DNA of 64,000 nt from Candidatus Woesearchaeota archaeon CG10_big_fil_rev_8_21_14_0_10_44_13 (GCA_002762985.1 PCXZ01000030.1:11692-75691), one strand, 5' to 3'; counted from the stretch's first letter, positions 3,864-31,845 are shown. Notes: generated from the letters alone by a model not told the origin. Numbers and translations: made by a program.

Positions 3864-4871
3864 ATGAAAAAAAAGATATTTATAACGGGTGTTGCTGGTT
3901 TTCTTGGATCTCATCTCGCTGATAGGATGATAGGAGAAGGCCACCATGTGATAGGATGTGATAGTCTCATAGGGGGGTATCTTGATAATGTCCCTCCAGA
4001 GGTAGAATTCTACCAGTATGACTGCAACTATCTTAATTCTATGAAGAAGATAACAAAAGAAGTGGATATAGTCTATCATTGCGCTGCCACAGCTTATGAA
4101 GGGCTGAGTGTTTTCAGCCCTTACATTGTCACAAAAAACGTGTTCCAGATAACTGCGTCTGTGCTGTCTGCATCAATATCAAATGGTATCAAAAGATTCG
4201 TGTTTACAAGTTCTATGGCCCGTTATGGAAAAAATAAGGTCCCTTTTGAAGAGTCGATGGCCCCGAAGCCCGAAGATCCGTATGGCATCGCAAAATACTC
4301 ATCTGAATTATTGATTGAAAACCTATGCGGGACCCATGGGATGGAGTATGTGATTGCTGTTCCGCATAATATAATAGGACCCAGACAGAAATATGACGAT
4401 CCGTACAGGAATGTCGCATCTATCATGATAAATATGATGCTGCAGGGAAAACAGCCGATAATATATGGGGATGGCAGGCAAAAAAGATGTTTCTCATTCG
4501 TAAATGACTGCATCCAATGTATGGAAAAGCTGGCTTTTCAGAAAAATGTTGCAGGAGAAGTGATAAACATAGGCCCTGACGAAGAATTCATCACCATAAA
4601 CGAGCTTGCAGAGAGAATAGCCAAACTTCTTGACTTCAAGCTGAAACCCAGGTATTTCTCTGACAGGCCCCAGGAGGTGAAGCTTGCAACCTGCTCAGCA
4701 GACAAGGCTAGAAAGCTTATAGGATACAAGACAGAATACAATCTTGATAAAGGCCTGAAGGAGATGATAGACTGGATAAAGCAAAGGGGCCCAAAACCAT
4801 TCAAATACCATATAGACCTCGAGATAATAAATAACAAAACGCCGGTCACATGGAAAGAAAAATTATTCTAA
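3864..4871 (+). CDS. NAD-dependent epimerase/dehydratase (extended SDR, UDP-glucose 4-epimerase-like)
   Basis: ITGVAGFLGSH Rossmann motif, PYGIAK (YxxxK), IYGDGRQKRCFSFV. Confidence 0.9.
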   Translation: MKKKIFITGVAGFLGSHLADRMIGEGHHVIGCDSLIGGYLDNVPPEVEFYQYDCNYLNSMKKITKEVDIVYHCAATAYEGLSVFSPYIVTKNVFQITASVLSASISNGIKRFVFTSSMARYGKNKVPFEESMAPKPEDPYGIAKYSSELLIENLCGTHGMEYVIAVPHNIIGPRQKYDDPYRNVASIMINMMLQGKQPIIYGDGRQKRCFSFVNDCIQCMEKLAFQKNVAGEVINIGPDEEFITINELAERIAKLLDFKLKPRYFSDRPQEVKLATCSADKARKLIGYKTEYNLDKGLKEMIDWIKQRGPKPFKYHIDLEIINNKTPVTWKEKLF

Positions 4872-5419
4872 ATATCCTTTTCCATATGGTCTATCCTTTT
4901 GATTATTTTTGCTGCATCGTAAAGATTTTCTGCTATAAAATCGGGTTTTGAGTTGTGTAAATTGTCATTTCCTGCCTTGCCTGTCTTGACAAGTATTGTT
5001 TTACATGAAGCATCGTTGCCCATTTTTACATCAGCAGTCTTATCTCCGATGACATAGCTTTTACTAACATCTATTCTGAACTCTTTCTCTGCTTCTTTTA
5101 TGAATTTTATGCTTGGTTTTCTGCAACCGCATCCCTCATCGGGGTTGTGCGGGCAGTGATATACCTTTGATATATTTATGCCATTTTTCGAAAATAATGC
5201 AAACATATGTTCATTCAGTTTGTAGAAATCTTTCTCAGAGTAATGCCCTCTGCCTATGCCGGACTGGTTTGTGATTACTATCAAAAGATATCCGGCATCC
5301 TGCAGCATCCTTAATGCATCGATTGTTCTAGGGATAAGCTTGAAGGCCTCGATTTTATGCACATACTCTCTATCAACATTGATTGTGCCGTCCCTGTCTA
5401 GAAATATTGCCTTTGCCAT
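4868..5419 (-). CDS. gmhB: D-glycero-D-manno-heptose 1,7-bisphosphate phosphatase
   Basis: HAD motif FLDRDGTIN, ITNQSGIGRG, Zn motif CPHxxxxxCxCRKP, IGDK; last gene of the heptose operon. Confidence 0.92.
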   Translation of the reverse strand: MAKAIFLDRDGTINVDREYVHKIEAFKLIPRTIDALRMLQDAGYLLIVITNQSGIGRGHYSEKDFYKLNEHMFALFSKNGINISKVYHCPHNPDEGCGCRKPSIKFIKEAEKEFRIDVSKSYVIGDKTADVKMGNDASCKTILVKTGKAGNDNLHNSKPDFIAENLYDAAKIIKRIDHMEKDI

Positions 5420-5437
5420 TCTTTCATTTCCTGTGCC

Positions 5438-6397
5438 TTAATAGTTCAAAAACCCCTTATTGAGATAATTGAGGACATAATCCATCACGCCCAGTTCAAG
5501 GCTGTAAAAATCTTGTTTATACCCTGCTTGCCTTAGCTTCACAATATCAGCCTGTGTAGAATACTGGTATTTCTCAGCCAGGCCATTAGGCATATCGACA
5601 TAATCTATCTTGGGGTCCAATCCTAATGAATTGAACACAGATTTAGCCAGATCATTGAATGTCCTTGCTTCTCCTGTACCTATATTGAATATGCCGTTTA
5701 TTGCCTTATTATCTATCATAAACATGATTACGGACAAAACGTCCTTCACATAGACGAAATCTCTCTTCTGCTCACCATCATTGACCCCCGGCTTATATGA
5801 TTTGAAAAGATTTACTTTGCCTTGTTTCTTGATCTGGTTGAAGGAATGGAAGATTACAGAAGCCATTGAACCCTTATGGTATTCGTTTGGGCCATATACA
5901 TTGAAGAATCTCAATCCGATCCACTGCGGCGGCTTCTTTTTTGATGAAAGAACATATTGATCAAATAATCTTTTTGTCTCGCCATAGATATTCAAAGGTT
6001 TTAGCTGTTCGGTCAGTGAATCATCATAGCCCAGGCTGCCGTCGCCGTAAGTTGCTGCGCTGCTTGCATAAATCAACCGGCAGTTATTATTTGCGCACCA
6101 ATCATATATCTCCTTGCTAAAGTAAAAGTTATTTTTCATTAAGTAATCCCCATTTGTCTCTGTTGTGGACGTGCAAGCGCCCATATGGATCACTAGATCA
6201 ATGTTTTCGGAAGAATTGAGAAGTCCGGTCAACTGGCTCTTGTCGACAAAATCCTTATATTTTAAAGTTGCGAGATTCTTGCAATTGCTCATCTCTTTTA
6301 CATCATCCACAATTATGATATCCTGGATCTTCCTGTTATTAAGCTCTTTTACCATGCAGCTTCCAATGAATCCTGCGCCACCGGTTAAGATTATCAT
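5438..6397 (-). CDS. hldD: ADP-L-glycero-D-manno-heptose 6-epimerase
   Basis: TGGAGFIGS, HMGACTSTTE, YASSAATYG, PLNIYGETK, RFFNVYGPNEYHKGSMASV, QYSTQAD. Confidence 0.95.
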   Translation of the reverse strand: MIILTGGAGFIGSCMVKELNNRKIQDIIIVDDVKEMSNCKNLATLKYKDFVDKSQLTGLLNSSENIDLVIHMGACTSTTETNGDYLMKNNFYFSKEIYDWCANNNCRLIYASSAATYGDGSLGYDDSLTEQLKPLNIYGETKRLFDQYVLSSKKKPPQWIGLRFFNVYGPNEYHKGSMASVIFHSFNQIKKQGKVNLFKSYKPGVNDGEQKRDFVYVKDVLSVIMFMIDNKAINGIFNIGTGEARTFNDLAKSVFNSLGLDPKIDYVDMPNGLAEKYQYSTQADIVKLRQAGYKQDFYSLELGVMDYVLNYLNKGFLNY

Positions 6398-6422
6398 TCT
6401 TTTACCATCCTGCTAAAAAATT

Positions 6423-7892
6423 TTATTTAGCATTAAAATGATTGTTGATTATATTGTTTATTATCTTTGTTGTTGATATTTCTCCTTTTAGTGGGATAAT
6501 AATCACTTCACCACCCTGCTTCTCAACAACATCCTTTCCAACAACATCTTCAACCTTATAATCGCCGCCTTTAACAATTATGTTGGGCATTATTGATTTG
6601 ATGACATTTAAAGGTGTATCTTCATCAAAGAAAATCACATAATCAACACACTCGATGGCAGAAAGCATCTCAGCCCGTTCATTCTCGGGTATTATCGGCC
6701 TGTTCTTACCCTTGATCCTCCTAATTGAAGCGTCTGTATTAAGACCAAGAATGAGAGCATCCCCTAATCTCCTTGCCTCCTGGAGATATTTTGTATGACC
6801 TGCATGAAGTATGTCAAAACAACCGTTTGTCCAAACAACTTTCCTGCCGTTTAGTTTCAGCTCTTTGACAATCTCCTTTAGTTCACTTATATCCTTTATC
6901 TTTTTGTTGCCTTTCTCAAATAAGCTTATAAGTTCATTTTGACTGACTGTAGAAGTACCGAACTTGCCGACAACTATGCCCGCGGCATAGTTTGCCATTA
7001 TGGTTGCCTCATACAACGTTGCTTTTGCAGCTATTGCAAGTGCAAGTGTTGCTGTCACAGTATCTCCTGCACCCACAATATCGAATACCTCTTTTGCTTC
7101 GGTGGGTATATGTGAAATATTCCCATTCTTCTCGAACAAAGACATGCCATTCTCTCCCCGCGTTATCAGTATATTGCTATTTAAGGTAAAAACCATCTTT
7201 CTGCCGATATTTTCAAGCTCTTCTTCTGTTTTCGGAACGGATTTCATCAGTGAGGTGATGTCCTTGACATTTGGTTTTATGAGGTATGTTCCTTTATAGA
7301 AGGAGATATTCTCTGGTTTTGGATCGACTACGATTGGCTTGTTATGTTTTTTACATAGATCGATTATTTTTATTGAGAGACTCTCTGTGATGGCTCCTTT
7401 GTTGTAATCTGAGATAACAACAGCGTCTGTCTCTTTTATCTTCTTTAAGATTCCCACCATAATCCTCTTTTCAGTAGAGTTATCTATCTTGCATTTGTCT
7501 TCCTTGTCCATCCTCAAGAGCTGATAATTTTGTACAATGACTCGTGTCTTTATTGTTGTTGGCCTATTTTTTGAGATGATTACTTTACTTGTGCTTATAC
7601 CTCTTCTTTTAAGCTCATCAAACAGCTGATTTTTGCCTTCATCAGGGCCAGCTAATCCAAAAAGAGTTATCTTTGCTCCAAGGGCTGCAAGATTGGCTGC
7701 TACATTAGCTGCCCCGCCCGGAAGGCAGTATTCTTCCTTCACGTCGACTATCTGCACTGGGGCTTCTTGGGAAAGTCTTTTGACTTCACCTAAAACGAAC
7801 TTGTCGAGCATTATATCTCCTATAACAAGTATCTTCTTATCCTTAAAATCCGGTATTATCTCTGCCAGCCTGTGTTTCATATGTACCCCCAT
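6423..7892 (-). CDS. hldE: Bifunctional heptose 7-phosphate kinase / heptose 1-phosphate adenylyltransferase
   Basis: PfkB domain (GDIMLD, GGAANVAAN, SDYNKG, DIVGAGDTV) fused to a cytidylyltransferase-like domain (TNGCFDILHAGH, LNTDASI, KGGDY, STT). The start may be ATG 7880. Confidence 0.95.
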   Translation of the reverse strand: MGVHMKHRLAEIIPDFKDKKILVIGDIMLDKFVLGEVKRLSQEAPVQIVDVKEEYCLPGGAANVAANLAALGAKITLFGLAGPDEGKNQLFDELKRRGISTSKVIISKNRPTTIKTRVIVQNYQLLRMDKEDKCKIDNSTEKRIMVGILKKIKETDAVVISDYNKGAITESLSIKIIDLCKKHNKPIVVDPKPENISFYKGTYLIKPNVKDITSLMKSVPKTEEELENIGRKMVFTLNSNILITRGENGMSLFEKNGNISHIPTEAKEVFDIVGAGDTVTATLALAIAAKATLYEATIMANYAAGIVVGKFGTSTVSQNELISLFEKGNKKIKDISELKEIVKELKLNGRKVVWTNGCFDILHAGHTKYLQEARRLGDALILGLNTDASIRRIKGKNRPIIPENERAEMLSAIECVDYVIFFDEDTPLNVIKSIMPNIIVKGGDYKVEDVVGKDVVEKQGGEVIIIPLKGEISTTKIINNIINNHFNAK

Positions 7893-7960: not shown

Positions 7961-8530
7961 TTATGCCACCTCTCTCTCTATGAGATGGCATATTATATGG
8001 CCCACAGTTATATGTGCTTCCTGTATCCTGGGTGTGCTGTCAGAAGGAACTATAAGGCTGATATCAGCGATATCTTTTATTGCGCCCCCTCCCCTTCCTG
8101 TAAAAGCGATTGTGAACGCTCCGTTCTTTTTTGCTTGCACTAGGCCTTTGATGACATTCGTCGAATTGCCGCTTGTCGTGAGTCCTATCACCACATCCCC
8201 TTTTTTGACTAGGCCTTCAACCTGCCTCTCGAATATCCTGTCAAACCCCCAATCATTGCCTATTGCAGTTATCAAGGAAGTGTTTGTTGTGAGAGCTATT
8301 GCGGGGATTGCTCTCCTTCCCTTAAGTTCGAATTGGTGGATCAATTCAGTTGCTATATGCTGTGCGTCAGAAGCGCTTCCGCCATTGCCAAAAAGTATCA
8401 ACTTCCCCCCTTTCCGGCAAGATTCTATTATCTTATTCACTACCAAGATTATCTCTTCAGTTAGAGTTTCCGCTATCTTTTTCTTAACATCAATACTGTT
8501 GCCAAGGCTTTCTAGTATGAATTCTTTCAT
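7961..8530 (-). CDS. gmhA: Sedoheptulose 7-phosphate isomerase
   Basis: SIS domain: GNGGSASDAQH, TAIGND, TTSGNS, RIQEAHITVGH. Confidence 0.95.
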   Translation of the reverse strand: MKEFILESLGNSIDVKKKIAETLTEEIILVVNKIIESCRKGGKLILFGNGGSASDAQHIATELIHQFELKGRRAIPAIALTTNTSLITAIGNDWGFDRIFERQVEGLVKKGDVVIGLTTSGNSTNVIKGLVQAKKNGAFTIAFTGRGGGAIKDIADISLIVPSDSTPRIQEAHITVGHIICHLIEREVA

Positions 8531-8679
8531 GCAAACTATATTGTTTATTTAAATGGAGTATATAAAGCTAACTGGGAGGACTGCATATTTGTTGTATTTC
8601 TGTGTATTAATGTATGTTGGGTAGAGAGTATAAAAAGACATATAAATGAAGGGCTATTAACCCTCTTTAAAAGGGTCAT

Positions 8680-10110
8680 ATGGATTTAACAAAAAGATTG
8701 ATCAGGAATATAGCAAGTTTGTTTTGTTCAGAAGTAGTCAGCAGATTCCTGCTTTTTGTTGTCGGGATATATCTTGTGAGGTATCTTGGCGCAGAAGAGC
8801 TGGGAAAATACACATTTATAATCGTTTTTGTGGGTTTATTCGGGTTCATCGGTGATCTTGGTTTAAGCACGCTCCTGATAAGAGAGATAAGCTTTAACTT
8901 GAAAAAAACAAGGGAATATCTTGGTAATTTCCTGATGATACAGTTCATTCTTAGCATTATTGTTTTCTTTTTGATAATAATAACAATAAATGTTATTGAT
9001 TACCCTCCCCTAATCAAGAAAGCAGTTTATATAGCTGCGTCAGGCATATTTTTTGGCACTTTGCTCAAGCCATTTAGTTCGGTTTTAGCTGCCTACGAGG
9101 AGATGCATTATATGGCAGGGGTATCTTTTTTATCAAACCTTGCTAATGCCATTATGATAATAGGCATTATATGGCTAAAACAAGGTTTATTGGCGCTCAG
9201 CATAGTTTTTCTTATTTTTTATATATTCCAGTTCTTACTTTACGCTTTGTTTTGCTCCATAAAATGTGCAACACCTAAGTTTGTCATTAGATTTGAATTA
9301 TGGAAGCATCTTTCAAAAGAGGTCCTGCCTTTTTTTCTTATAATGTCTTTTGGCATACTCTACAATAAGATAGACATAATCATGCTCTCAAAGATGCAAG
9401 GGGATGCTGCAGTGGGTTATTATGGGGCAGCATACAAGATAATAGACCTTCTCATTGTTTTATCCTCCATACTGGGGGGGGTGATATTCCCGGTGTTATC
9501 AAAATATTTTGCAAAGAAAGATATGGTTTCATTAAAGAAAGTAGGGTATAAGGCCATAAAGTACCTTGCTTCCTTATCGCTGCCAATAGCAGTCGGAACC
9601 ACCTTGCTCTCTGCAAGGATAATAATCTTCCTTTTTGGGGCAGAGTTCGGGGCTTCTTCTGTGGCGCTTACAATCCTCATATGGGTGATCCCCCTGCAGT
9701 TCATATTAGGGATAATATATAACATATTATTAAGCGTAAAAAAAACAATATTGTACGCAAAGATAATGGGTTTTGGCGTTCTTCTTAATATCCTCTTAAA
9801 TCTGGTACTTATCCCAGAGTATAGCTATATTGGTGCAAGTATCTCGACGCTTGCCTCTGAATTGACAATATTCCTCATAGTGATGTTCATGGTAAGGAAG
9901 CATTTGTTTTTATGGACAATAATCAAAGATTATTTACCTATAATATTCTCTGTTTTGATCATGGCCGCATTCATTTTCATATCTAAAAGTCTTGAAGTAT
10001 GGGCCATAATCCTCCTGTCGGCAGCGGCATATTTCATATCTCTTTATTTGACAAAATTTTTAAAAGATGGCGAAATCGATTTATTCAGGGGGCTATTTTT
10101 CAAGAACTAG
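8680..10110 (+). CDS. Wzx/RfbX-type oligosaccharide flippase (MOP superfamily)
   Basis: About 12-14 TM segments; LVRYLGAEELGKY, DLGLSTLLIREI, KIDIIMLSKM, VGYYGAAYKI, YIGASISTL. Confidence 0.88.
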   Translation: MDLTKRLIRNIASLFCSEVVSRFLLFVVGIYLVRYLGAEELGKYTFIIVFVGLFGFIGDLGLSTLLIREISFNLKKTREYLGNFLMIQFILSIIVFFLIIITINVIDYPPLIKKAVYIAASGIFFGTLLKPFSSVLAAYEEMHYMAGVSFLSNLANAIMIIGIIWLKQGLLALSIVFLIFYIFQFLLYALFCSIKCATPKFVIRFELWKHLSKEVLPFFLIMSFGILYNKIDIIMLSKMQGDAAVGYYGAAYKIIDLLIVLSSILGGVIFPVLSKYFAKKDMVSLKKVGYKAIKYLASLSLPIAVGTTLLSARIIIFLFGAEFGASSVALTILIWVIPLQFILGIIYNILLSVKKTILYAKIMGFGVLLNILLNLVLIPEYSYIGASISTLASELTIFLIVMFMVRKHLFLWTIIKDYLPIIFSVLIMAAFIFISKSLEVWAIILLSAAAYFISLYLTKFLKDGEIDLFRGLFFKN

Positions 10111-10118
10111 GCAATAAA

Positions 10119-11579
10119 ATGAGAGTAATGCTATTAAATCCACCTTATATAAGTACGTCAAAGTATGGCAAGCCGCCTCTTTTTGCGATGGCCATCCCTT
10201 TAGGAATAGGGTATATAGGTGCAGTACTGAAAAAAGGGGGGTTTGATGTCAGGGTCAAGGATATGTATTTCATGAGCTGGAAAGAATGTGAGGGTGCAAT
10301 AAGAGAATATGGGCCTTCTATTGTGGGCATAAGCTGCCTCACTGAACAGAGGATGAGCGCTTTTAAGCTCGCAGATATTGTTAAAAAGATAGATAAGGAT
10401 ATCATGGTCGTAGTGGGCGGGCATCACGCCTCTTATATGTACAGGCAAGTGCTGGAAAAATATGAATCAGTGGATATAGTTGTGATAGGGGAGGGCGAAG
10501 AAACCATGATTGAGATTGTCAGCCGCCTTAAGAAAAAAAATCATAAGCTTGATGGAATAAAAGGGATCGCTTACAGAAAAGGAGGTAAAATAATATTCAA
10601 CGGCTGCAGAGAACCGATAAAAGATCTTGACACCGTGCCTTTTCCGCTATACGATGAGTATGATTTAGATGTGTACAGGGAGCACGAAAACTTCAAGAAT
10701 ATCACAATAGGCGGTAAAAAGATAAAGGATATGAAATCTGCTACAATAATCACCTCAAGAGGATGCCCGTTTAAATGCCAGTTCTGCTCCTCTTCTGTGT
10801 TCTGGGGAAGAAGATGGAGGTTCAGGTCGGCAGAGAATGTGTTGGATGAGATTGAACTCCTGAATAAAAGGTATAAAGTCACTCATTTCAATATAGAGGA
10901 TGATGCTTTCACCATAGATAAAAAAAGGACAAAGGAGATATGTGAAGGCATGATAAAAAGGAGATTGAAAGTGGCTTGGACATGCACTACTAGGATAACA
11001 AGCCTTTCATCGGATCTTGTAAAGATCATGAAAGACTCGGGATGTTATCTTGTTGCAGTCGGCGTGGAATCTGGAAGCCAAAAAATACTTGATTCGATCC
11101 ATAAATCCCTTAGCGTAAAGGACATAATCAGTGGTTTTGAGATGTTGAGAAAGGCCAAGATGATGTCGACTGCCTTGTTAATGGTCGGGAATCCGGGAGA
11201 GGATGAAGGAACTGTGAATGAGACAGTAGATCTGATAAAAAAAATAAGGCCGTTTAGACTTGGGCTCTCTATAACCATGGTCTTCCCTGAGACTGAACTT
11301 TACCAGATTGCAAAGAAAAAAGGACTTTTGAGGGATGATTATTGGTTAAGTGAACTGCCTCCCCCATACTATACTCCGGAGAATAGTATCAAACAGCTAA
11401 AAAAGTGGTGGAATAAGATATTCTATGCATGGTGCATTTCAAGGGGGGAATATGGTCTTCTCTTGAAAAGATTAGTCAACTCAGAAATCATCTCGGCGAG
11501 AGATTTTATTGAAGTGGTTACAGGATATAAGATATCAAGAAGGGGTTTTGAAAAGGTCCCTAAAATGGTGGGTGCATGA
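10119..11579 (+). CDS. Cobalamin-dependent radical SAM protein
   Basis: Likely start MRVMLLNPP at 10119; PLGIGYI, GGHH, GEGE B12-binding domain; TSRGCPFKCQFC (CxxxCxxC); GVESGS. Confidence 0.92.
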   Translation: MRVMLLNPPYISTSKYGKPPLFAMAIPLGIGYIGAVLKKGGFDVRVKDMYFMSWKECEGAIREYGPSIVGISCLTEQRMSAFKLADIVKKIDKDIMVVVGGHHASYMYRQVLEKYESVDIVVIGEGEETMIEIVSRLKKKNHKLDGIKGIAYRKGGKIIFNGCREPIKDLDTVPFPLYDEYDLDVYREHENFKNITIGGKKIKDMKSATIITSRGCPFKCQFCSSSVFWGRRWRFRSAENVLDEIELLNKRYKVTHFNIEDDAFTIDKKRTKEICEGMIKRRLKVAWTCTTRITSLSSDLVKIMKDSGCYLVAVGVESGSQKILDSIHKSLSVKDIISGFEMLRKAKMMSTALLMVGNPGEDEGTVNETVDLIKKIRPFRLGLSITMVFPETELYQIAKKKGLLRDDYWLSELPPPYYTPENSIKQLKKWWNKIFYAWCISRGEYGLLLKRLVNSEIISARDFIEVVTGYKISRRGFEKVPKMVGA

Positions 11580-12475
11580 CAAACAGAACAAACAGGTGCA
11601 TTTTATGCGGCTCAGGCAGGAAATCAAAAGAGTATGCCATTGGGTCGAAGGGAATCTACAAGTGTGATTCTTGCGGCCTTATATTCACTCTCCCACAGAA
11701 CAGGCTAACCCAATTCTCAGAGAAACAGAAAGCGATTTATGAAGGGGAAATGTACAGAAAAATGTATTTCTCAATAAGGAAAAAGATATGCCATCGCGCA
11801 GAAAAAAGGCTGGAGGAGATATCAAGCTATAGAACAACAGGAAGTATACTTGATGAAGGGTGCAGTTATGGGTTCTTTTTGGAGGTTGCATCAGAAAAAG
11901 GATGGGAGAGCTACGGAACCGAGATAAATAAGCCTGCCGCAGATTATTCAAGAAAGCTTGGCGCAAAGGTTTCGAACTGTTTTACAGAGGATGCCAAGCT
12001 CAAAAAGAATTTTTTTGATGCCATCACCATGTGGGATGTCCTTGAACATACTGAAAATCCGGTCAAACACCTCATATTTGTTAGGGGGCTCCTGAAAAAA
12101 GGAGGTATTATTGCAGTACAACTTCCTAATATAGATAGCATTGCATCAAAGATTGCTGGGAAAAAATGGGCATGGCTTTGCCCCGACGATCATATGTATC
12201 ATTTTTCTGTAAAAACCCTGACGAGAGCGATCAAAGAAGCAGGATATGATATGATAGAGATGAGAACCTGGGAAGATCCGACAGTCATAGTCGATTCTAT
12301 TGTTGCGAGGATAAAATCCGACAATAATAAAGCCATGAATAGTGCAATAGACAAAATTGCAATACCTTTTTATATTTTCATGAATAAGGTGGGTTTTTTA
12401 TTCTACCCTTATCATTGGATCATCAAAAAATACAATAAAGGAGGCTTGATTCTTGCATATGCAAAAAATAAATGA
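11576..12475 (+). CDS. Class I SAM-dependent methyltransferase with N-terminal Zn-ribbon
   Basis: CILCGS...CDSCGL; ILDEGCSYGFFL, FDAITMWDVLEH, LKKGG, HMYHFS. Confidence 0.88.
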   Translation: MTNRTNRCILCGSGRKSKEYAIGSKGIYKCDSCGLIFTLPQNRLTQFSEKQKAIYEGEMYRKMYFSIRKKICHRAEKRLEEISSYRTTGSILDEGCSYGFFLEVASEKGWESYGTEINKPAADYSRKLGAKVSNCFTEDAKLKKNFFDAITMWDVLEHTENPVKHLIFVRGLLKKGGIIAVQLPNIDSIASKIAGKKWAWLCPDDHMYHFSVKTLTRAIKEAGYDMIEMRTWEDPTVIVDSIVARIKSDNNKAMNSAIDKIAIPFYIFMNKVGFLFYPYHWIIKKYNKGGLILAYAKNK

Positions 12476-13992: not shown

Positions 13993-14002
13993 GGAAGTAA
14001 AA

Positions 14003-15523: not shown

Positions 15524-15530
15524 GGATAGT

Positions 15531-17326: not shown

Positions 17327-17327
17327 T

Positions 17328-18134: not shown

Positions 18135-18155
18135 GCCTTACAAGGGGAAGTATCC

Positions 18156-22930: not shown

Positions 22931-22940
22931 TGGATAAAAA

Positions 22941-23735: not shown

Positions 23736-23746
23736 GATGAAGTGAA

Positions 23747-25435
23747 ATGGTTTACGTACTGGGTATAACAAGGCCGTGGGGATTTAACAACGCCGCAGTT
23801 TTGCTGAAAGATGGAGAGATAGTTGCAGCTATAGAAGAAGAGAGGCTGAACAGGATAAAATATGCAAAAAACATGCTTCCAAAGATGGCCATTGAACATT
23901 GCCTGAAACAAGAAGGCATAAGAATTGAAGATGTTGACAGAATTGCTGTAGGCAGCGATTCCTGCCTGAAGACAGCATCAAAACAGGCGGCTTTGTTATT
24001 AAGAAAACCTTGGAACCCCTCGTTCATGCGGCTTCCATTAGAAGGGTATAAAGTTTTTAGAAAATATGGGTTCTTTAAGAGATACAAGAGAAAGATTGAT
24101 TATATAACCCACCATGATTCGCATTCTGCATCAGCATTCTACTGCTCAGGTTTTGATAAGTCGAACATACTGTCTATCGATGGTATAGGCGAGACCACTT
24201 CAACGGCAATAGGGTACGGCGTCAGGGATAAGATGAAACAGGTTGAAGATTATGATTTCACAAACTCCCTTGGTTTGCTCTACTCTTCATTCACGAAGCA
24301 TCTCGGATTCAGGGAGCACATAGATGAGTGGAAAGTGATGGGATTATCAAGTTACGGCAAGCCTATTTTCCCGATTGACGGCCTGATAAGATTCTCAAAA
24401 AAAGGGTATTCGACTGATACTTTCTACAGGTTTTGCGATTACCACAGATCCTTAATCAAATATATAAAAGAAGGCACTAAACTAAGGCTTGATGCCAATT
24501 TCACTGAAAGGTTCGGCATAAGGAGGAAGGAAGATGAGAAGATCATAAAAAGGCATACGAATGTGGCTGCTACGTGCCAGACAATATATGAGCAGGCGTT
24601 AATAAAACTGGCCACCTTCATCAATGACCTCACCCGGATAAGGTATTTCTCTCTGGCAGGGGGTTGTGCACTTAATTGTGTTGCAAATGGCGCATTGTTA
24701 GAACAGGATTTTGTTGATGACATATTTGTCCAACCGGCTGCAAATGATGCAGGAACAGCGCTAGGTGCGGCGATTTTGTCCTCTTTTGGGCTCGGAGTGA
24801 AGAAAAAGGCCAGGATGGAACATGTGTATTATGGTCCGCAGTATTCCGATGAAGAGATAAAGAGAACGCTACAAAGGAACAGGCTGAAATTTGATTATTA
24901 CAAGGATATTGAAGGAAAGGCTGCGGAGCTGCTGGCAAAGGAGAAGCTTGTCGGGTGGTTCCAGGGAAGGATGGAATTCGGGCCAAGGGCACTGGGCAAC
25001 AGGAGCATACTTGCCACGCCTACAAGGATCAGGATGAGGGACAAAGTGAACATTTCTGTCAAGCATAGGGAGTATTGGAGGCCTTTTGCACCGTCAATGC
25101 TCGAAAATGCGGCAGATGAGTATCTCGAAAACGCCCACAAAAGCCCGTTCATGAATCTAAACTTCAGGGTTAAGCAAGAGAAATGGGGGGAGATACCCGC
25201 GGTAGTGCATATTGATGGCACTGCAAGGGTGCAGACTGTAAACCGGTCTGCAAATGCCAAGTACTTCAGGCTTATAAGCGAATTTGAAAAAGAGACAGGG
25301 ATACCCGTATTGCTGAATACCTCGTTCAATGATAATGAAGAGCCGATAGTATGCTCCCCGGAAGACGCTACATTGACTTTCAAGAAGACAGGATTGGATT
25401 ATCTTGCAATAGGCAATTACCTGGTGAGAAAATGA
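23747..25435 (+). CDS. O-carbamoyltransferase (NodU/CmcH/TobZ family)
   Basis: AAIEEERLNRIK, HHDSHSASAF, DGIGE, EWKVMGLSSYG, LAGGCALNC, MEFGPRALGNRS, HIDGTARVQ, LNTSFN. Confidence 0.93.
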   Translation: MVYVLGITRPWGFNNAAVLLKDGEIVAAIEEERLNRIKYAKNMLPKMAIEHCLKQEGIRIEDVDRIAVGSDSCLKTASKQAALLLRKPWNPSFMRLPLEGYKVFRKYGFFKRYKRKIDYITHHDSHSASAFYCSGFDKSNILSIDGIGETTSTAIGYGVRDKMKQVEDYDFTNSLGLLYSSFTKHLGFREHIDEWKVMGLSSYGKPIFPIDGLIRFSKKGYSTDTFYRFCDYHRSLIKYIKEGTKLRLDANFTERFGIRRKEDEKIIKRHTNVAATCQTIYEQALIKLATFINDLTRIRYFSLAGGCALNCVANGALLEQDFVDDIFVQPAANDAGTALGAAILSSFGLGVKKKARMEHVYYGPQYSDEEIKRTLQRNRLKFDYYKDIEGKAAELLAKEKLVGWFQGRMEFGPRALGNRSILATPTRIRMRDKVNISVKHREYWRPFAPSMLENAADEYLENAHKSPFMNLNFRVKQEKWGEIPAVVHIDGTARVQTVNRSANAKYFRLISEFEKETGIPVLLNTSFNDNEEPIVCSPEDATLTFKKTGLDYLAIGNYLVRK

Positions 25436-26811
25436 AGACCAAGATTCTTTTTGTAGATGCGCATGATGCGAAAAAAAGAGTTGAATCAGTTTATCCTCCA
25501 CTTAATCTTGCATATCTTGCTTCATATCTGAAAAAGAATCTGGGATGCAAAGATTTGTCATTAAAGATAATAACAGAAAGATATGAAAAAGAGATATTAT
25601 CATTCTCTCCGGACATGATAGGGGTGTCCTGTGTAACACAGAATTATGGCCTTGCCATAGAGATAGCATCCTTTGCGAAAAAAAGAGGAATCCCGGTGAT
25701 AATAGGGGGAGTGCACATATCAAACCTGCCTGAATCATTGAACAGGAATTTCGATGTAGGGGTGATAGGGGAAGGAGAAAGGACATTATCTGATCTAGTC
25801 AGGCTTTTTGAGAAAAAAAGAAGTTTTCCTGAAAATGAATTGTCAAAGATAAAAGGGCTTGTCTTTTTTAATAAGAAAGGGAAGATTATATTCACAGGAG
25901 AGCAGGAGCTTATGAAAGATGTTGATGCAATACCATTTCCATGCAGAAGCCTCCTTGATATTGATAAAGAGACTATCTTCATGATGTCATCTCGCGGATG
26001 TCCTTATAAATGTTACTTCTGCTCTTCTTCTTCATTCTGGGGAAAGGCCAGATTCCATTCAGCCGATTATGTGGTTGATGAAATCAGGCAGGTGATGAAT
26101 GATTACTCCCCTAAAAAAATAATATTCTTTGATGACTTGTTTATAGCGGATCTGGGCCGGCTGAGGAAAATAGTCTCAAAGATAGAAAAGTCAGGAATAA
26201 ATAATAAGGTCACATTCCATGTATCAGCCAGAGCAAATCTGGTGAATGATGAGGTTATATCACTTCTTAAGAGGATGAATGTGAGTGCAGTAAACATCGG
26301 TTTTGAGTCAGGATCAGATGAGACACTTAGGTACCTTAAAGGGAGCGCAATTTCGGTCAAAGACAATATAAATGCGATATCCTTGCTGAAGAAGTCGGGA
26401 ATCTTTATTGCAGGATCATTTGTTATGGGGTGCCCTATTGACAGCAAAAAGACCATAATGGACACATATAGATTCATCAAAAAACACAAGATTAATGATT
26501 TTGCAGTGTATGTGCTGACCCCATTTCCTAAGACAAAGGCATGGGATTATGCATTATCAAAGGGGCTTGTCTCAAATGATATGGATTTCTCAAGGCTTTC
26601 TATTGATTATGAGGGGGATTATAGGGACAAGATAACTATCTGCCCAAACATGTCAAAAAATGAAATCTACTCGGTTTACAGGAAATTTCTGAGATTGCAT
26701 ACTTTCAGGAGGGTTATGTCTGCAGTTGATATGGCATTCAAAAGGCCAAAAGATTTGATGAAGGCAGTTAATCGAAGGCTCAGGTTTAGGGATATTGGAG
26801 GGTATAATTGA
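25432..26811 (+). CDS. Cobalamin-dependent radical SAM protein
   Basis: Likely start MKTKIL at 25432 (ATGA overlap with upstream stop); PPLNLAYLASY, GGVHIS, GEGE; SSRGCPYKCYFC; GFESGS. Confidence 0.92.
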   Translation: MKTKILFVDAHDAKKRVESVYPPLNLAYLASYLKKNLGCKDLSLKIITERYEKEILSFSPDMIGVSCVTQNYGLAIEIASFAKKRGIPVIIGGVHISNLPESLNRNFDVGVIGEGERTLSDLVRLFEKKRSFPENELSKIKGLVFFNKKGKIIFTGEQELMKDVDAIPFPCRSLLDIDKETIFMMSSRGCPYKCYFCSSSSFWGKARFHSADYVVDEIRQVMNDYSPKKIIFFDDLFIADLGRLRKIVSKIEKSGINNKVTFHVSARANLVNDEVISLLKRMNVSAVNIGFESGSDETLRYLKGSAISVKDNINAISLLKKSGIFIAGSFVMGCPIDSKKTIMDTYRFIKKHKINDFAVYVLTPFPKTKAWDYALSKGLVSNDMDFSRLSIDYEGDYRDKITICPNMSKNEIYSVYRKFLRLHTFRRVMSAVDMAFKRPKDLMKAVNRRLRFRDIGGYN

Positions 26812-26854
26812 GCAGAGGGGGTTGGATTATTGGAATAATTAAATAATCAAACCG

Positions 26855-27991
26855 GTGCGTGAGAGGAAAAACATCATGAACAAGAAAGATAATAGGAAGA
26901 GGAAATCAGTTGCCATAATAATCTTAAATTGGAATGGGTGGAAAGATACAATTGAATGTCTGGAAAGCCTTTTTAAGATAGATTATCCTGATTATGATGT
27001 AGTTATTGTAGATAACAACTCAACAAATGGTTCTGTAGACAAGATAAAAGGATATCTTAAAGGAAAAACAGTAGTGAATTCAAAGTATTTCTCATATGAC
27101 CAGTCAAATAAGCCATTGAAATATATTGAAGTTGATGAAGAGTATATAAAGCCAGGAAAATGGGGGCATAAGGCGGTACGTGAAGGGGTATGCAGTCTTT
27201 TCAACGACATTTTTGACAGAAAAGGGAATATTATTATTATAAAGAACAAGCACAATTATGGCTTTGCGGAGGGGAATAATGTCGCAATTGACTTGATATT
27301 AAGGATGGGAAAACATGATTATATTAATCTCCTAAACAATGACACAATTGTTGAAAGAGAGTATCTTAAATTCTTGATAGAGTGTTTTGAAAAGAATAAA
27401 AGGGTAGGAATGACTGGGCCAAAGATATATTTCTATGATTATGAAGGAAAGGATGCAAAGAATAAGGACAAAGAAGAGGGTAATGATGATATAAGGATAT
27501 GGTTTGGGGGGGCAAAAAGGGATTATATCAAAGGATCATTCAAGCAGGAAGGATTATGTAAGGAGGATTCCCCAGAATCCAATATCATGAAAGAAGTGCC
27601 GTTCATAACCGGCTGCTGCCAGCTTATAAAGAGTGAGGTATTCAGAAAAGTGGGCTTGTATCCCGCAGACTATTATCTTTATTTTGACGATGTAGACTTC
27701 TGTCAGAGAGTAGGTGGTAAGTTTAAGATGGTATACTGCCCAAAGAGCGTGATATACCATAAGGTGAGCTCTTCTATAAAAAGCGACCGCCCAAAGCACA
27801 TATATTATTTTAACAGGGCAAGGCTGATATACCTCATGAAAAACTTCAATCTATCAAACCTTATCCCCCTCATGTTTTTTGCGATGTCAAGGTCTTTTTT
27901 AATAACATATTACTTATTTACAAATAAGAGGGATAATCTTACGGCATTGTTCAGGTCATTTTTAATATGGAAAGAGAGGGTAGAATATTGA
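26855..27991 (+). CDS. GT2 glycosyltransferase
   Basis: IIILNWNGWKDTIECLESL, VDNNSTNGS, NYGFAEGNN, LLNNDT, YFDDVD; the start may be ATG 26876. Confidence 0.9.
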   Translation: MRERKNIMNKKDNRKRKSVAIIILNWNGWKDTIECLESLFKIDYPDYDVVIVDNNSTNGSVDKIKGYLKGKTVVNSKYFSYDQSNKPLKYIEVDEEYIKPGKWGHKAVREGVCSLFNDIFDRKGNIIIIKNKHNYGFAEGNNVAIDLILRMGKHDYINLLNNDTIVEREYLKFLIECFEKNKRVGMTGPKIYFYDYEGKDAKNKDKEEGNDDIRIWFGGAKRDYIKGSFKQEGLCKEDSPESNIMKEVPFITGCCQLIKSEVFRKVGLYPADYYLYFDDVDFCQRVGGKFKMVYCPKSVIYHKVSSSIKSDRPKHIYYFNRARLIYLMKNFNLSNLIPLMFFAMSRSFLITYYLFTNKRDNLTALFRSFLIWKERVEY

Positions 27992-28067
27992 AGGTATTAA
28001 ATGCGTGATGATGGATCGACAAGAGATTTTTAAAATGTAAGAGAATTAAAAGTATGAGAATGAAAAA

Positions 28068-29264
28068 ATGAAGATTTGTTTTATCGCCCCGTCATACAAC
28101 CGGAAAGAATGCGGTGTAGCAGATTATACGGGCATACTTGCAGATAGATTGAGAAACGAAGGCCATGAGACCTCCATAATTGCATCGGATGGCCATGTGG
28201 AAGACAGCCGCAGAATAAAAGGGATAAGAATATACCCCTTAGGCAAGAGGTGGGGGTTTAGGGATTATATCAAGATATCGAGGCTGATGAAAGAAATCAA
28301 ACCAGACATCCTCCATATACAATACCAAAGCTTTAACTGCAATAACAATCCGATGATCAATGCATTGCCTTGGCTATTGAAGTACAGGTTTAAAAAAAAC
28401 AAGATGAAGATAATTGTGACATTGCATGACCTTAGCGCACCTTTCTTCATGGGCATAAATGCAAGGATTTTCAGAAAGATAGGCCAAGCAATCTGGCTTA
28501 CGTTAATCATGCTTTATTGCGATTCATTTGCGATGTCGAATGAATATGAATGGATGATTGTAGAGAGGAGCATGCCTGGTTTTTTACATGAAAAGATAAA
28601 AAGAAAATTCTATCTAATTCCCATCCCGTCAAGCGTACCTGTGCTAAAAATGAGTGAGAACGATATTAATCTGAAAAGAAGAGAGATGGGGTTCAAGGCA
28701 GACGAGAAAGCGGTCATCTTTTTTGGATTTGTCAGGTCAGGCAAGGGAATAGATATCCTTCTTCGCTCGATGGGGGGTATCATCCAAAGAGGGTATAAAG
28801 TGAAACTGGTGGTATTAGGGGGGGTGTATGAGAAAGAGTACCATAAGGTGATGTTAAGATTATCTAAACAGATGGGCATATCTAAAAATGTTTTGTGGAC
28901 AGGTTATAGGTCGCAGAAGGAGACATCTGAAATGCTCCATACGGGTGAGATTTGCGTGATGCCTTATGAAGATGGGGTTGCAACTTATAGAAGCAGTTTT
29001 TCCACTGTGGCAGAACATGGCCTTCCGACAATCACTACAAAAGGAAAGATTATACCTAAAGGATTAAAGGATGGATTTAATGTATTATTATTTGAAGCGA
29101 AGGATAATGCAACCCTGACAAGATTGATCGTTTCCCTTCTTGATGATGAGAAGATGAGAGAAAATCTTGCCAAAAACATAAAAAGATACTCACATACCTT
29201 ATCTTGGGAAAACACCATAAGAAGGATTGAGAAGATGTATGGAATGTGTGCAAAGGAAAAATGA
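28068..29264 (+). CDS. GT4 glycosyltransferase
   Basis: CGVADYT, PDILHIQY, VTLHD, FGFVRSGKGID, GT-B C-terminal domain. Confidence 0.88.
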   Translation: MKICFIAPSYNRKECGVADYTGILADRLRNEGHETSIIASDGHVEDSRRIKGIRIYPLGKRWGFRDYIKISRLMKEIKPDILHIQYQSFNCNNNPMINALPWLLKYRFKKNKMKIIVTLHDLSAPFFMGINARIFRKIGQAIWLTLIMLYCDSFAMSNEYEWMIVERSMPGFLHEKIKRKFYLIPIPSSVPVLKMSENDINLKRREMGFKADEKAVIFFGFVRSGKGIDILLRSMGGIIQRGYKVKLVVLGGVYEKEYHKVMLRLSKQMGISKNVLWTGYRSQKETSEMLHTGEICVMPYEDGVATYRSSFSTVAEHGLPTITTKGKIIPKGLKDGFNVLLFEAKDNATLTRLIVSLLDDEKMRENLAKNIKRYSHTLSWENTIRRIEKMYGMCAKEK

Positions 29265-30349
29265 TTGAACAAATTGCAGTAAAGTTTATGAAATGGGTAA
29301 TGAGGCTGGGAAGATTATTCAACAGCTCGAAAAACTTATTTGACAAGAAATCTGTGAATAAGATCTTAGTCATAGACACAAATAATCTTGGGGATTTCTT
29401 TTTCACAATCCCCTCTATAAAGGCGATAAGAAAGGAATTCCCGAATGCTGACCTAAGAGTGGTTGTCTGGAAAGAGGTAGCGCCCATATCGAAAAAAATG
29501 AAGTGGATAGACCAAACTGTCATCTGTGAGAAAAAGAGCATGATAAGAAATGCAGGCCTGATAAATATGCTAAGGAAAGAAAGATTCGACCTTGTGATAA
29601 ACATGCAGCTCGACATAAGGAAGATCCTTTTAGCCTACATCATAAATGCAAAGTTCTCGATAGGGCATGATATAAGGGAGTTTGGTTTCATGCTGTCAAG
29701 ATCCGTTCCGCTCAGGCTCAGATACTGGCCAGAGGTGTATCTTGACCTCATCAGGCCGATCACCCAAAAAAATTTGGATAATAACATAACATTTGATATT
29801 TACAGGAAGGATTATGATTTTATAGAAAGATATGTCAAGAAGAAAGGGCTTGTAAAAAAAGATTCGCTGGTCGGCATACATCCTGGGGTCGGAGAGTTTA
29901 TCCCTCAGAAAAGATGGGAAGAGAAAAAATTTGCGGAGTTATGTGACATACTCCAAGAGAAGTACGGACTGAGTGTGCTATTAGTGGGTTCCTCATCTGA
30001 AACGGAGATGATAAGGCGCATAAGGGATGCAATGAAGACAAAATGCATAGAGGTATGCGATTTGAGCATAGACAGGCTGCCAGCACTTATAAGCAGATAT
30101 AAACTATTTGTAGGGGTGGATTCCGCGCCGTTACATATAGCTACAGCGCTCAATGTACCTTCCATAGTTTTATGCGGGCCACAGGACCCAAATATGGTGC
30201 TTCCTGCAAGAAAGAACATGATTGTATTAAGAAAAGACGTAAAATGCAATCCATGTTATAAAGAAGAGAAGATAAAGTGCGATGACAACATCTGCATGAA
30301 ATCCATACAAGTAGGTGAGGTAGTATCGGCCATAAGAAAGATGATATGA
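29261..30349 (+). CDS. GT9 ADP-heptose:glycan heptosyltransferase (WaaF/WaaQ-like)
   Basis: KILVIDTNNLGD, AIRKEFPNA, IHPG...KRW, VGVDSAPLHIATALNVPSIVLCGP, CNPC...CM; these are GT9 signature blocks. Confidence 0.9.
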   Translation: MIEQIAVKFMKWVMRLGRLFNSSKNLFDKKSVNKILVIDTNNLGDFFFTIPSIKAIRKEFPNADLRVVVWKEVAPISKKMKWIDQTVICEKKSMIRNAGLINMLRKERFDLVINMQLDIRKILLAYIINAKFSIGHDIREFGFMLSRSVPLRLRYWPEVYLDLIRPITQKNLDNNITFDIYRKDYDFIERYVKKKGLVKKDSLVGIHPGVGEFIPQKRWEEKKFAELCDILQEKYGLSVLLVGSSSETEMIRRIRDAMKTKCIEVCDLSIDRLPALISRYKLFVGVDSAPLHIATALNVPSIVLCGPQDPNMVLPARKNMIVLRKDVKCNPCYKEEKIKCDDNICMKSIQVGEVVSAIRKMI

Positions 30350-31845
30350 GGGAAAGGGTAAGTAAGTATAGATTAGGTGCATTCTTATTTTTTGCACTTG
30401 TAGGGCTCATACTGGGTGCTATGTCTTTTTTCTTGCCTTCAGGACTATTCAAGATAATGCTGTTAGTCGTGCTTTCCTGCATAATCCTGGTTCATCTCAT
30501 GCAAAAAGGGATATTCTATCTTATAACTCTTGCAATATTCTTCAGTATGACGCTGCCAAAAGCAGGTTTTGAATTTAATGATATACCTTTCACAATAGGG
30601 AATGTCTTGCTTGCGGCCTCATTCGTGCTGTGGGTAATAAAATTAACAAAAGAGCATGTAATGACGGGCCTGATACGTCTGAAAAAAACGGTGATTGACA
30701 AGCCATTCATGCTTTATGTGGTCATGGCATTGATATCAGTTTTCATCTCTCTCTATTTCAATGCCAACCCCTACAACATAATCTTTGAGGCGATAATATT
30801 TTTAGGTTATGCTTTTGTGTTCTATCTTATTGTGAACAATATAAAAGATGAGAAACAAATAAGGCTGGTCTTTCTGCTTTTGACAGCATCGGCGTTTCTG
30901 GTTTCCATATACGGCATAATGCAATATTTCATAGACCCAAAAAAGATATCTATCCCATTCTTAACATACCCTGCGGATCACCCCTCATTGTATTTATTCC
31001 TCGACAGGAACAGGAGAATTTTCTCTACTTTTGTTAACCCAAACCTGCTTGGGAATTATCTTGTGATGTTCATGTTCATACCATTGGGCATTTTTTTAAA
31101 TGAAAAAAGAGACTCAAGGTACATTTATCTCATTCTTTTTGCAATAACGATGTATTGCCTTTTCCTTACGGGGTCAAGAGGGGCGTTGATTGGTTTTATA
31201 GCGGGGATGTTTGTGCTGTTTTTAACTGACGGATTCAATATAAAGAGGGTATTCAAGTATTTATTCGTTGTATTGGTGCTTGTGTCATTGGCCCTTATCA
31301 TCAGCCCAAGGATCATAGAATTTAACACAAACACTTTCAGCGATTTCTCCATGGGTGTGAGGGTCCAGAATTATAAGAGGATATTTGAGACGATAGAAGA
31401 ATACCCATTTGGTATGGGGCTCGGCACGTCTTCTGGAATTGATTATCTTTCAGAGATACAGATTATAGAAGTTGGCCCAGGAATGATCTGGCAGACAGGG
31501 GTGCACAGCCTTTATGGCTCGATAATCATAAAGATGGGAATCTTTGGCCTTTTGTTCTTTTTATGGATCATGAGAAAGGTTTACTCGTCTTTTTTTGCCG
31601 GCCTAGAACCATTAGAAAGAAGGGAGGGACGGTTTTCCTTCTTAAGAGGGTGCCTGATAGGGGCAATAGCGGGCCTTTCAGCAAACCTCATACATTCGTT
31701 CATGGAGTTCGCGTGGGTTTTCCCCCACCTAGCTGAAGATTTTTGGATTTTGGTTGGATGCATTGTTGCATTATCAAACATAATAATAAAAGAATCGTCA
31801 AAATCAGGTCGGAACAAAAAAAGAGGTCATCTTATCGATAAATAG
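30346..31845 (+). CDS. O-antigen ligase/polymerase family (WaaL/Wzy_C) membrane protein
   Basis: About 12 TM segments; RIFSTFVNPNLLGNYL, LTGSRGALIG, GVRVQNY, GMGLG, GVHSLY (conserved His), LIHSFME. Confidence 0.85.
   Translation: MRERVSKYRLGAFLFFALVGLILGAMSFFLPSGLFKIMLLVVLSCIILVHLMQKGIFYLITLAIFFSMTLPKAGFEFNDIPFTIGNVLLAASFVLWVIKLTKEHVMTGLIRLKKTVIDKPFMLYVVMALISVFISLYFNANPYNIIFEAIIFLGYAFVFYLIVNNIKDEKQIRLVFLLLTASAFLVSIYGIMQYFIDPKKISIPFLTYPADHPSLYLFLDRNRRIFSTFVNPNLLGNYLVMFMFIPLGIFLNEKRDSRYIYLILFAITMYCLFLTGSRGALIGFIAGMFVLFLTDGFNIKRVFKYLFVVLVLVSLALIISPRIIEFNTNTFSDFSMGVRVQNYKRIFETIEEYPFGMGLGTSSGIDYLSEIQIIEVGPGMIWQTGVHSLYGSIIIKMGIFGLLFFLWIMRKVYSSFFAGLEPLERREGRFSFLRGCLIGAIAGLSANLIHSFMEFAWVFPHLAEDFWILVGCIVALSNIIIKESSKSGRNKKRGHLIDK

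Follow-up and report, generated by a model that had tools for sequence, protein, structure and literature searches.

Introduction

ADP-heptose is the donor for the inner core of Gram-negative lipopolysaccharide (LPS) as well as an innate-immune agonist, and Escherichia coli carries the operon hldD-waaF-waaC-waaL. Among archaea, the S-layer of Halobacterium bears a repeating-unit N-glycan, and we know of no characterized Agl pathway that contains heptose, a GT9 glycosyltransferase, a Wzy_C protein, carbamoyltransferases, or four B12-radical SAM enzymes. In this study, we analyzed a DNA stretch of 64,000 nucleotides (hereafter the window, with positions counted from its first letter) from Candidatus Woesearchaeota archaeon CG10_big_fil_rev_8_21_14_0_10_44_13 (GCA_002762985.1 PCXZ01000030.1:11692-75691), in which an ADP-heptose operon, a GT9 glycosyltransferase, and a large glycan cluster lie between two genes for the oligosaccharyltransferase AglB. 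The region probably represents the cargo of an AglB-bracketed surface-glycosylation locus, from which heptose would enter a dolichol-linked surface glycan transferred by AglB.

As described in two commentaries on the work of Tang et al. (Science 2024), archaea encode functional NDP-heptose enzymes, whose purpose was left open (PMC11461863, PMC11573728), and according to the second commentary the authors state that the reason for archaeal heptose synthesis is unknown (PMC11573728). Our own literature search, of incomplete coverage, yielded no account of GT9 enzymes in archaea or of archaeal N-glycans that contain heptose, and no paper on a system of this kind in DPANN genomes. An original prediction, made from the window alone, had read the locus as LPS-core-like machinery that builds a heptosylated surface glycoconjugate on an unspecified acceptor.

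Results

An ADP-heptose operon in a genome without lipid A or Kdo genes

The gmhA-hldE-hldD-gmhB operon, which the original prediction had called intact, is indeed complete on the minus strand of the window. Its first gene encodes the sedoheptulose-7-phosphate isomerase GmhA (7961–8530; SIS_2, 83.6 bits), which was assigned by its PDB matches: every one of the 13 best is a phosphoheptose isomerase (top match 3e-50), and the metal site retains its His/Glu/Gln/His motifs. HldE (6423–7892) is a fused heptose-7-phosphate kinase and heptose-1-phosphate adenylyltransferase that scores 366.7 bits with TIGR02198 (cutoff 345) and 202.6 bits with TIGR02199 (cutoff 181.5). The ADP-glyceromanno-heptose 6-epimerase HldD (5438–6397) reaches 407.8 bits with TIGR02197 (cutoff 274.6), and GmhB (4868–5419) reaches 191.6 bits with NF006506 (cutoff 178).

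The motif (F/L)XXGRSTT, with arginine at position 5, has been reported as the mark of heptose nucleotidyltransferases that are promiscuous for CDP and UDP (PMC11573728). The C-terminal motif of HldE reads LKGEISTT and lacks this STTR5 arginine; production of CDP- or UDP-heptose via STTR5 was rejected as a candidate activity, and ADP-heptose is the expected product because the arginine is missing. HldE is thus predicted to be mainly ADP-specific, and the L-glycero form of ADP-heptose is implied by HldD. As for the precursor, transaldolase has no match in the genome, and a split transketolase is encoded together with Rpe and RpiB on contig C36, so that sedoheptulose-7-phosphate can be made.

The divergent intergenic region (8531–8679) separates gmhA from a wzx-like gene. 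Direct reading of this region shows TTTATATA on the minus strand, ending 29 nt upstream of the start codon of gmhA, as well as A/T-rich TATA-like boxes upstream of the wzx-like gene. Both elements would be consistent with archaeal TATA promoters and archaeal transcription.

The genome assembly comprises 1.515 Mb in 36 contigs and is 98.5% complete and 1.0% contaminated. Throughout this genome, LpxC, the N-domain of the Kdo (3-deoxy-D-manno-octulosonic acid) transferase WaaA, and the Kdo-8-phosphate synthase KdsA gave no match, while Gram-negative controls were positive in each search. The predicted lack of lipid A and Kdo genes therefore extends from the window to the whole genome. As the cell is unable to make Kdo2-lipid A, the acceptor of its GT9 enzyme must differ from the LPS acceptor.

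A conserved archaeal frame with variable cargo

The host is an archaeon, as predicted: the genome contains an archaeal small subunit–tRNA(Ala)–large subunit rRNA operon, and the STT3 profile, which among the control genomes matches archaea only, detects two genes in the window. Of the archaeal markers named beforehand, AglB and the sugar-phosphate transferase GPT were both found, as two STT3 genes and one PF00953 gene. At the left border, AglB1 (366–2507, minus strand) is a short STT3-family oligosaccharyltransferase paralog of 713 aa with a PF02516 score of 76.3 bits; the motif at its residue 481 is WWDKG in place of WWD(Y/F)G. It is adjoined by a DUF4330 membrane protein (2614–3393, plus strand; PF14221, 89 bits), whose homolog in the same-family genome G228 also lies beside AglB1. 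At the right border, AglB2 (50639–53527, plus strand; PF02516, 142.1 bits; PF21436) is of the long type typical of the phylum, with 962 aa and WWDFG at residue 631. Orthologs of AglB1, with 39–46% identity, occur only in two same-family genomes, and each of these genomes has a long AglB about 50 kb away. Based on these orthologs, the two-AglB frame is a family-level trait.

The frame is preserved in detail in G228. On the left, AglB1 (43% identity) and DUF4330 are followed by about 32 kb of other glycan genes; on the right, the order is GPT (52%), a geranylgeranyl-reductase family flavoprotein (GGR, 60%), an NTP transferase (66%), a 463-aa surface protein (58%), large surface proteins, AglB2 (47%), and a GT2 (64%). 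The frame is also kept in the second genome, G164, where AhcY (76% identical to the copy on the contig of the window) lies upstream of AglB1. A self-contained mobile cassette, in which the low-GC segment would bring AglB1 as its own oligosaccharyltransferase, is ruled out for AglB1 by its syntenic orthologs in these two genomes, which lack heptose genes.

An assembly or binning artifact, in which heptose genes of a co-occurring bacterium were joined to an archaeal contig, could draw on the composition of the locus and on the bacterial type of HldD. The segment of 31 kb that holds the heptose and glycosyltransferase genes deviates from the rest of the contig, with a tetranucleotide correlation of r = 0.90 and a GC content of 0.392 compared with about 0.445; past 36 kb the GC content steps from about 0.39 to about 0.45, and the low-GC segment ends with the plus-strand cluster. 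Such deviation is expected of a laterally exchanged island. In contrast, the flanks on the same contig (C18, 153 kb, the longest of the assembly) agree with the remaining genome at a correlation of r = 0.98–0.99, as other contigs do, and archaeal aglB genes flank the heptose segment on both sides. Moreover, an independent metagenome contig of 72.5 kb from the Joint Genome Institute (JGI) has the identical order AglB1 - DUF4330 - ... - GmhB - HldD - HldE - GmhA - Wzx - ..., the frame recurs in G228 and G164, and HldE and GmhB are nearest to DPANN relatives. Single-contig genomes of the same order, G004, G194, and G219 among them, contain the same gene set. We assign the artifact a negligible probability and regard it as effectively refuted; the flank composition, the independent assembly, the same-family synteny, and the similarity of HldE and GmhB to archaeal proteins together rule out a chimeric contig. 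Collectively, the heptose cluster is not a mis-join but variable cargo within an archaeal locus whose frame is conserved.

Several genes inside the frame are candidates for N-glycosylation. GPT (39136–40140, plus strand; PF00953, 117.8 bits), of the AglH/MraY superfamily of polyprenyl-phosphate sugar-1-phosphate transferases, is a candidate initiator whose G228 homolog (52% identical) is syntenic. Next to it, an AglJ-like GT2 (38324–39160, minus strand) resembles a dolichyl-phosphate hexose transferase, with 125.3 bits for PF00535 and 138.7 bits for the AglJ profile TIGR04182, below the cutoff of 325; its homologs in relatives directly follow AglB. GGR (40186–41316, minus strand) is a candidate polyprenol or dolichol reductase that narrowly passes TIGR02032 (158.9 bits, cutoff 158.8), is 60% identical to its G228 homolog, and has homologs that precede AglB in relatives. 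Finally, a secreted surface protein of 1209 aa (43906–47535, minus strand) with an N-terminal hydrophobic segment contains 31 N-x-S/T sequons, compared with 16.0 ± 3.6 in composition-matched shuffles. The same shuffle test showed no enrichment in the neighboring 929-aa and 463-aa proteins. Given its sequon excess, the 1209-aa protein is a plausible glycan acceptor.

Linkage of heptose genes to aglB in the phylum

To place the locus, 301 species-level genomes of the phylum were surveyed, with a heptose kinase counted where a strong heptose-7-phosphate kinase domain was present. The kinase occurs in 71 of the 301 genomes (about 24%) and GT9 in 91 (30%), and 66 genomes have both (odds ratio 108, Fisher p 4e-39, without correction for phylogeny). 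In 37 of the 71 heptose-positive genomes, AglB lies on the contig of the kinase, within 20 kb in 28 of them and within 10 kb in 19. Several of these genomes consist of one contig, which rules out a binning artifact. No heptose kinase or GT9 was found in five sampled genomes of the same family, and GT9 was absent from four model archaea among the controls. By these frequencies and the tight linkage, the locus is not an isolated oddity; public metagenome-assembled genome (MAG) records already carry annotations of these genes.

Twenty loci of relatives (L001–L020) were annotated by phmmer with the proteins of the window, and genes unrelated to those were left unlabeled. The recurrent order is GGR - AglB (about 1000–1150 aa) - AglJ-like GT2 - DUF2304 - GT9 - GmhA - HldE (fused or split) - GT9, so that the homologs of AglB2, of about 1000–1150 aa, adjoin heptose and GT9 genes. 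GT9 genes often number two or three per locus and are accompanied by PMT_2-like GT-C proteins. In L001–L006, L011, L014, and L016, AglB is followed by the AglJ-like GT2, DUF2304 (112 aa), and polytopic proteins of 530–615 aa with a weak PMT_2 match or none, a set that looks like a dolichyl-phosphate-sugar and GT-C system for outer-face glycosylation.

Two further arrangements were observed in the relatives. In L008 (7627–8628, minus strand), L010, L012 (12116–13210, plus strand), and L015, GmhB is fused to the heptose-1-phosphate adenylyltransferase in both domain orders (333–364 aa), accompanied by stand-alone kinases. Additionally, L012 (10208–11131, plus strand) and L015 (10285–11211, plus strand) share a conserved gene (about 307 aa) between their heptose genes, with 50% mutual identity and, as its sole Pfam match, a weak one to an ArgZ-like Rossmann domain; no homolog of it was found in the genome under study.

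The GT9 glycosyltransferase and its Wzy_C neighbor

The GT9 protein (29246–30349, plus strand) is a candidate ADP-heptose-dependent heptosyltransferase, located 21 kb from the heptose operon, with 111.8 bits for PF01075 (cutoff 22). Its scores with the equivalog profiles of WaaC, WaaF, and WaaQ lie below the cutoffs (given in brackets): 110.1 bits for TIGR02201 (170.2), 104.8 for TIGR02195 (134.6), and 74.1 for TIGR02193 (185.3). Its best PDB match is 3tov (2e-25), an uncharacterized GT9 of Veillonella. In phmmer alignments with HepI and HepII (6dfe/2gt1 and 1psw), its GD, K-R-W, and D-S-A-P-L-H (D-S-x-x-x-H) motifs align with D13, K192, and D261 of HepI. The protein is an orphan, with one 57%-identical homolog on a contig of 1.9 kb and all others at no more than 30% identity.

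The start of the adjoining gene overlaps the GT9 stop codon. It encodes a polytopic membrane protein of the Wzy_C family (30346–31845, plus strand; PF04932, 68.2 bits) with about 12 hydrophobic segments, a candidate polymerase or ligase. This protein is likewise an orphan, with nearest homologs at no more than 28% identity and no match among PDB sequences. Wzy, WaaL, and PglL share one common fold, so that a fold match would not separate them. A second Wzy_C-family gene lies on contig C22 (C22:35121-35729; an open reading frame (ORF) of 670 aa). Within the phylum, the family occurs in 13 of the 301 genomes and shows no linkage to GT9 outside this locus, and this rarity and lack of linkage rule out a conserved GT9-WaaL pair. 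The predicted order of a GT9 followed by a WaaL/Wzy-like ligase is therefore present, but the WaaL label is unsupported, a Wzy polymerase being equally possible, and the pairing is not conserved. Between the two roles, we favor a putative polymerase over a ligase.

Mixed ancestry of the operon

In approximate FastTree phylogenies of limited samples, the kinase domain of HldE falls in a clade of 74 leaves (support 0.885), whose 30 labeled members are all archaeal. Bacterial-labeled kinases lie outside this clade, with a Margulisiibacteria-containing group as its sister. HldE and GmhB share 46–51% identity with DPANN relatives and 35–45% with bacterial loci. In contrast, the 80 best matches of HldD among 185,579 species genomes are all bacterial, with 45–56% identity, whereas the HldD-like genes of DPANN relatives are 33–38% identical; its profile score of 407 bits compares with at most 321 for any other HldD of the phylum. 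Recent transfer of the whole operon from one bacterium is ruled out, since only HldD is of bacterial type and HldE and GmhB are nearest to DPANN relatives. By these sequence affinities, HldD is classed as a bacterial-type xenolog, HldE and GmhB as DPANN type, and GT9 and the Wzy_C protein as orphans; the cassette is mosaic and horizontally mobile.

The nearest HldD sequences (54–56% identity) belong to two bacterial MAGs. Hungateiclostridiaceae UBA1305 of the Clostridia (L023) has the order GT9-HldE-GmhA-HldD-GmhB-GT2-GT4-GT9, and SURF_62 of the Parcubacteria in the Candidate Phyla Radiation (CPR; L024) encodes HldE, GmhB, HldD, and GT9. These clusters place the HldE/HldD/GT9 toolkit in organisms expected to lack LPS as well. 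The earlier statement that Gram-positive bacteria use the GDP route instead is, for the same reason, too absolute.

The glycan-building cluster and the remaining genes

The glycan cluster comprises 27 genes on the plus strand (8680–36156), divergent from gmhA. Its first gene encodes a Wzx-type (Polysacc_synt) flippase (8680–10110; PF01943, 97.3 bits) with about 12–14 hydrophobic segments, and a MurJ-like flippase follows at 19600–21180. A glycan-building and tailoring block (9999–27991) holds, by Pfam matches, four B12-binding radical SAM enzymes, five SAM methyltransferases, and four GT2s. Two NodU/CmcH-type carbamoyltransferases were matched at 21161–22930 and 23747–25435. A GT4 (28068–29264; PF00534, 68.8 bits) lies directly upstream of GT9, and three GT4s with one methyltransferase close the cluster (31861–36156). 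The cluster totals are six SAM methyltransferases, four B12-binding radical SAM enzymes, two carbamoyltransferases, four GT2s, four GT4s, and one GT9. The several GT4s and GT2s agree with the original prediction; its "WaaE/KdtX-like" label for two GT2s of about 260 aa fell away, as a generic GT2 domain is their sole match.

The four radical SAM enzymes, six methyltransferases, and two carbamoyltransferases would imply a product with unusually heavy C- and O-methylation and carbamoylation. When the longest ORFs are taken, the Wzx-like gene and the first radical SAM gene (9999–11579) overlap by 112 nt. The JGI contig calls a later start for the radical SAM gene (486 aa), and the overlap is probably an artifact of choosing the longest ORF.

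Outside the cluster, an NAD-dependent sugar epimerase/dehydratase (3864–4871, plus strand; PF01370, 161.4 bits) scores below every NCBIfam equivalog cutoff, so that the profiles assign it no specificity. An epimerase/reductase (36162–37115, minus strand; PF16363, 211.6 bits) and a GDP-mannose 4,6-dehydratase (37122–38180, minus strand; PF16363, 484.9 bits) form a likely GDP-6-deoxyhexose branch. The window also contains rmlABCD genes and genes for large secreted proteins outside the 27-gene cluster.

Discussion

A route from sedoheptulose-7-phosphate to a surface glycan can be proposed for this locus. Judging from equivalog-level matches, transketolase would supply sedoheptulose-7-phosphate, which GmhA, the HldE kinase, GmhB, the HldE adenylyltransferase, and HldD would convert to ADP-L-glycero-beta-D-manno-heptose. 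On the cytoplasmic side, the soluble GT9 may then add heptose to an oligosaccharide linked to polyprenyl(dolichyl) phosphate rather than to Kdo2-lipid A. This oligosaccharide would be started by GPT, extended by the GT2s and GT4s of the cluster, and decorated with methyl, C-methyl, and carbamoyl groups. The Wzx-like or MurJ-like flippase would move the unit outward, where the Wzy_C protein would probably polymerize it, and AglB1 or AglB2, judged by gene linkage alone, may transfer the product to Asn sequons on surface proteins, the 1209-aa protein being one example. We infer the steps from GT9 onward from homology and linkage.

The prediction of a heptosylated surface glycoconjugate other than LPS thus stands as a sensible inference from the HldE/HldD route, the missing lipid A and Kdo genes, and the archaeal host. 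The acceptor, on which the prediction did not decide, is narrowed toward AglB because aglB neighbors heptose and GT9 genes throughout the phylum and the cargo here sits between two AglBs. The further suggestion of mimicry or host attachment is pure speculation.

Several observations weigh against an AglB-transferred heptose glycan. GmhA falls under the NCBIfam GmhA cutoffs (185.7 against 209.45), and GT9 stays under all cutoffs for HepI, HepII, and HepIII, so that its donor and acceptor are predictions. GT9 is also not an ortholog of the AglB-adjacent GT9 clade of the relatives, as the tree places it outside those clades, and the co-occurrence statistic of kinase and GT9 ignores phylogeny. Furthermore, glycan genes of all kinds cluster at aglB in archaea, so proximity is no proof of N-linkage, and a lipid-linked or released polysaccharide could equally be the product.

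The product could be a heptose capsule or exopolysaccharide made by Wzx and Wzy independently of protein, either carrier-bound or released, with AglB as a mere neighbor. The combination of Wzx, Wzy_C, and many glycosyltransferases is the typical layout of bacterial O-antigen and capsule loci, the nearest HldD relatives are found in monoderm and CPR bacteria, within clusters of the polysaccharide type, and the segment is foreign in composition. We nevertheless consider such a polysaccharide unlikely: general domain scans of the window turned up no Wza, Wzc, or Wzz, two AglBs frame the locus with a sequon-rich surface protein inside, and the linkage of heptose genes to aglB is phylum-wide. An LPS-like lipoglycan would instead be anchored in lipid without lipid A, with GT9 heptosylating an archaeal glycolipid core and the Wzy_C protein acting as a WaaL-type ligase that adds a Wzx-flipped polymer.

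For the lipoglycan, the order of GT9 and Wzy_C with overlapping stop and start codons recalls the waaF-waaC-waaL order of E. coli, Wzx-like and MurJ-like flippases are present, and the second Wzy_C gene of the genome could supply the polymerase. However, no lipid core is indicated, AglB is the partner that accompanies GT9 in a conserved manner across the phylum, Wzy_C is present in 13 genomes against 91 for GT9 and unlinked elsewhere, and the protein has neither informative relatives nor a PDB sequence match. On balance, the lipoglycan appears distinctly improbable. A different use of the nucleotide, such as a small molecule or a host signal, or a GT9 with another donor, has its own precedent in bacterial natural products such as septacidin, which are fed by ADP-heptose (PMC11461863), and is compatible with GT9 scores below all heptosyltransferase equivalog cutoffs. 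This use is very improbable, considering that Pfam scans found no natural-product scaffold genes in the cluster, that flippases and glycosyltransferases dominate it, and that heptose kinase and GT9 co-occur tightly in the phylum.

The AglB-linked heptose glycan can also be stated in a bolder form, which we offer tentatively and hold to be rather unlikely as a whole. Woesearchaeota-type DPANN archaea would use ADP-heptose and GT9 to build heptose N-glycans on dolichol, and the physiological role that archaeal heptose synthesis has so far lacked would lie there. In this family, the locus between two specialized AglB paralogs would carry swappable cargo in the manner of bacterial O-antigen loci. 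A Wzy-polymerized, methylated, and carbamoylated L,D-heptose glycan, moved to protein by the divergent, WWDKG-bearing AglB1, would then be a protein-anchored analog of the LPS O-antigen and core, and the heptose/GT9 module would be common to CPR bacteria and monoderms of the same habitats.

The locus and the 301-genome survey provide a testable answer to the role of archaeal heptose, in which GT9 is wired into AglB-centered DPANN glycosylation loci. The HldE/HldD/GT9 toolkit also exists apart from lipid A: it is found in archaea, CPR, and Clostridia-type bacteria and moves as a cassette. These results bear on the reading of "LPS genes" in metagenomes, on the chemistry at the surface of episymbiotic, ultra-small cells, and on deciding which microbes may act as ADP-heptose sources.

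Compared with the Gram-negative LPS inner core, the locus shares the same five enzymatic steps to ADP-heptose and the fused HldE, and its GT9 shares the catalytic Asp/Lys/Asp positions of LPS heptosyltransferases, with a gene of the Wzy_C/WaaL family beside it. In contrast to the LPS system, the host is an archaeon without lipid A, Kdo, or Kdo transferase genes, GT9 is not an ortholog of HepI, HepII, or HepIII, and the genomic partner is AglB instead of waa or lpx genes. The commentaries on Tang et al. 2024 name no archaeal heptosyltransferase or acceptor (PMC11461863, PMC11573728), and unlike the STTR5 enzymes described there, HldE of the window lacks the STTR5 arginine. The monoderm and CPR clusters L023 and L024 likewise combine ADP-heptose genes and GT9 in hosts expected to lack LPS; however, these hosts are bacterial and have no AglB in the cluster, and their HldE and GmhB are 35–43% identical, below the DPANN relatives.

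The locus also resembles other DPANN modules of the Woesearchaeota/Nanoarchaeota type, with which it shares the phylum, the lineage of HldE and GmhB and the linkage to aglB, GGR, and an AglJ-like GT2. The modules of these relatives usually have two to three tandem GT9 genes directly behind AglB, often a split HldA/HldC or a GmhB::HldC fusion, and often no canonical HldD, whereas the window has a single orphan GT9, a fused HldE, a bacterial-type HldD, the rare Wzy_C, and a second AglB. As in the Agl pathways of Haloferax, Methanococcus, and Sulfolobus, a GPT initiator, an AglJ-like dolichyl-phosphate GT2, flippase candidates, AglB with WWDxG, and a sequon-rich surface protein are present. Collectively, the locus is one atypical, mosaic instance of a widespread system, whose heptose function is predicted.

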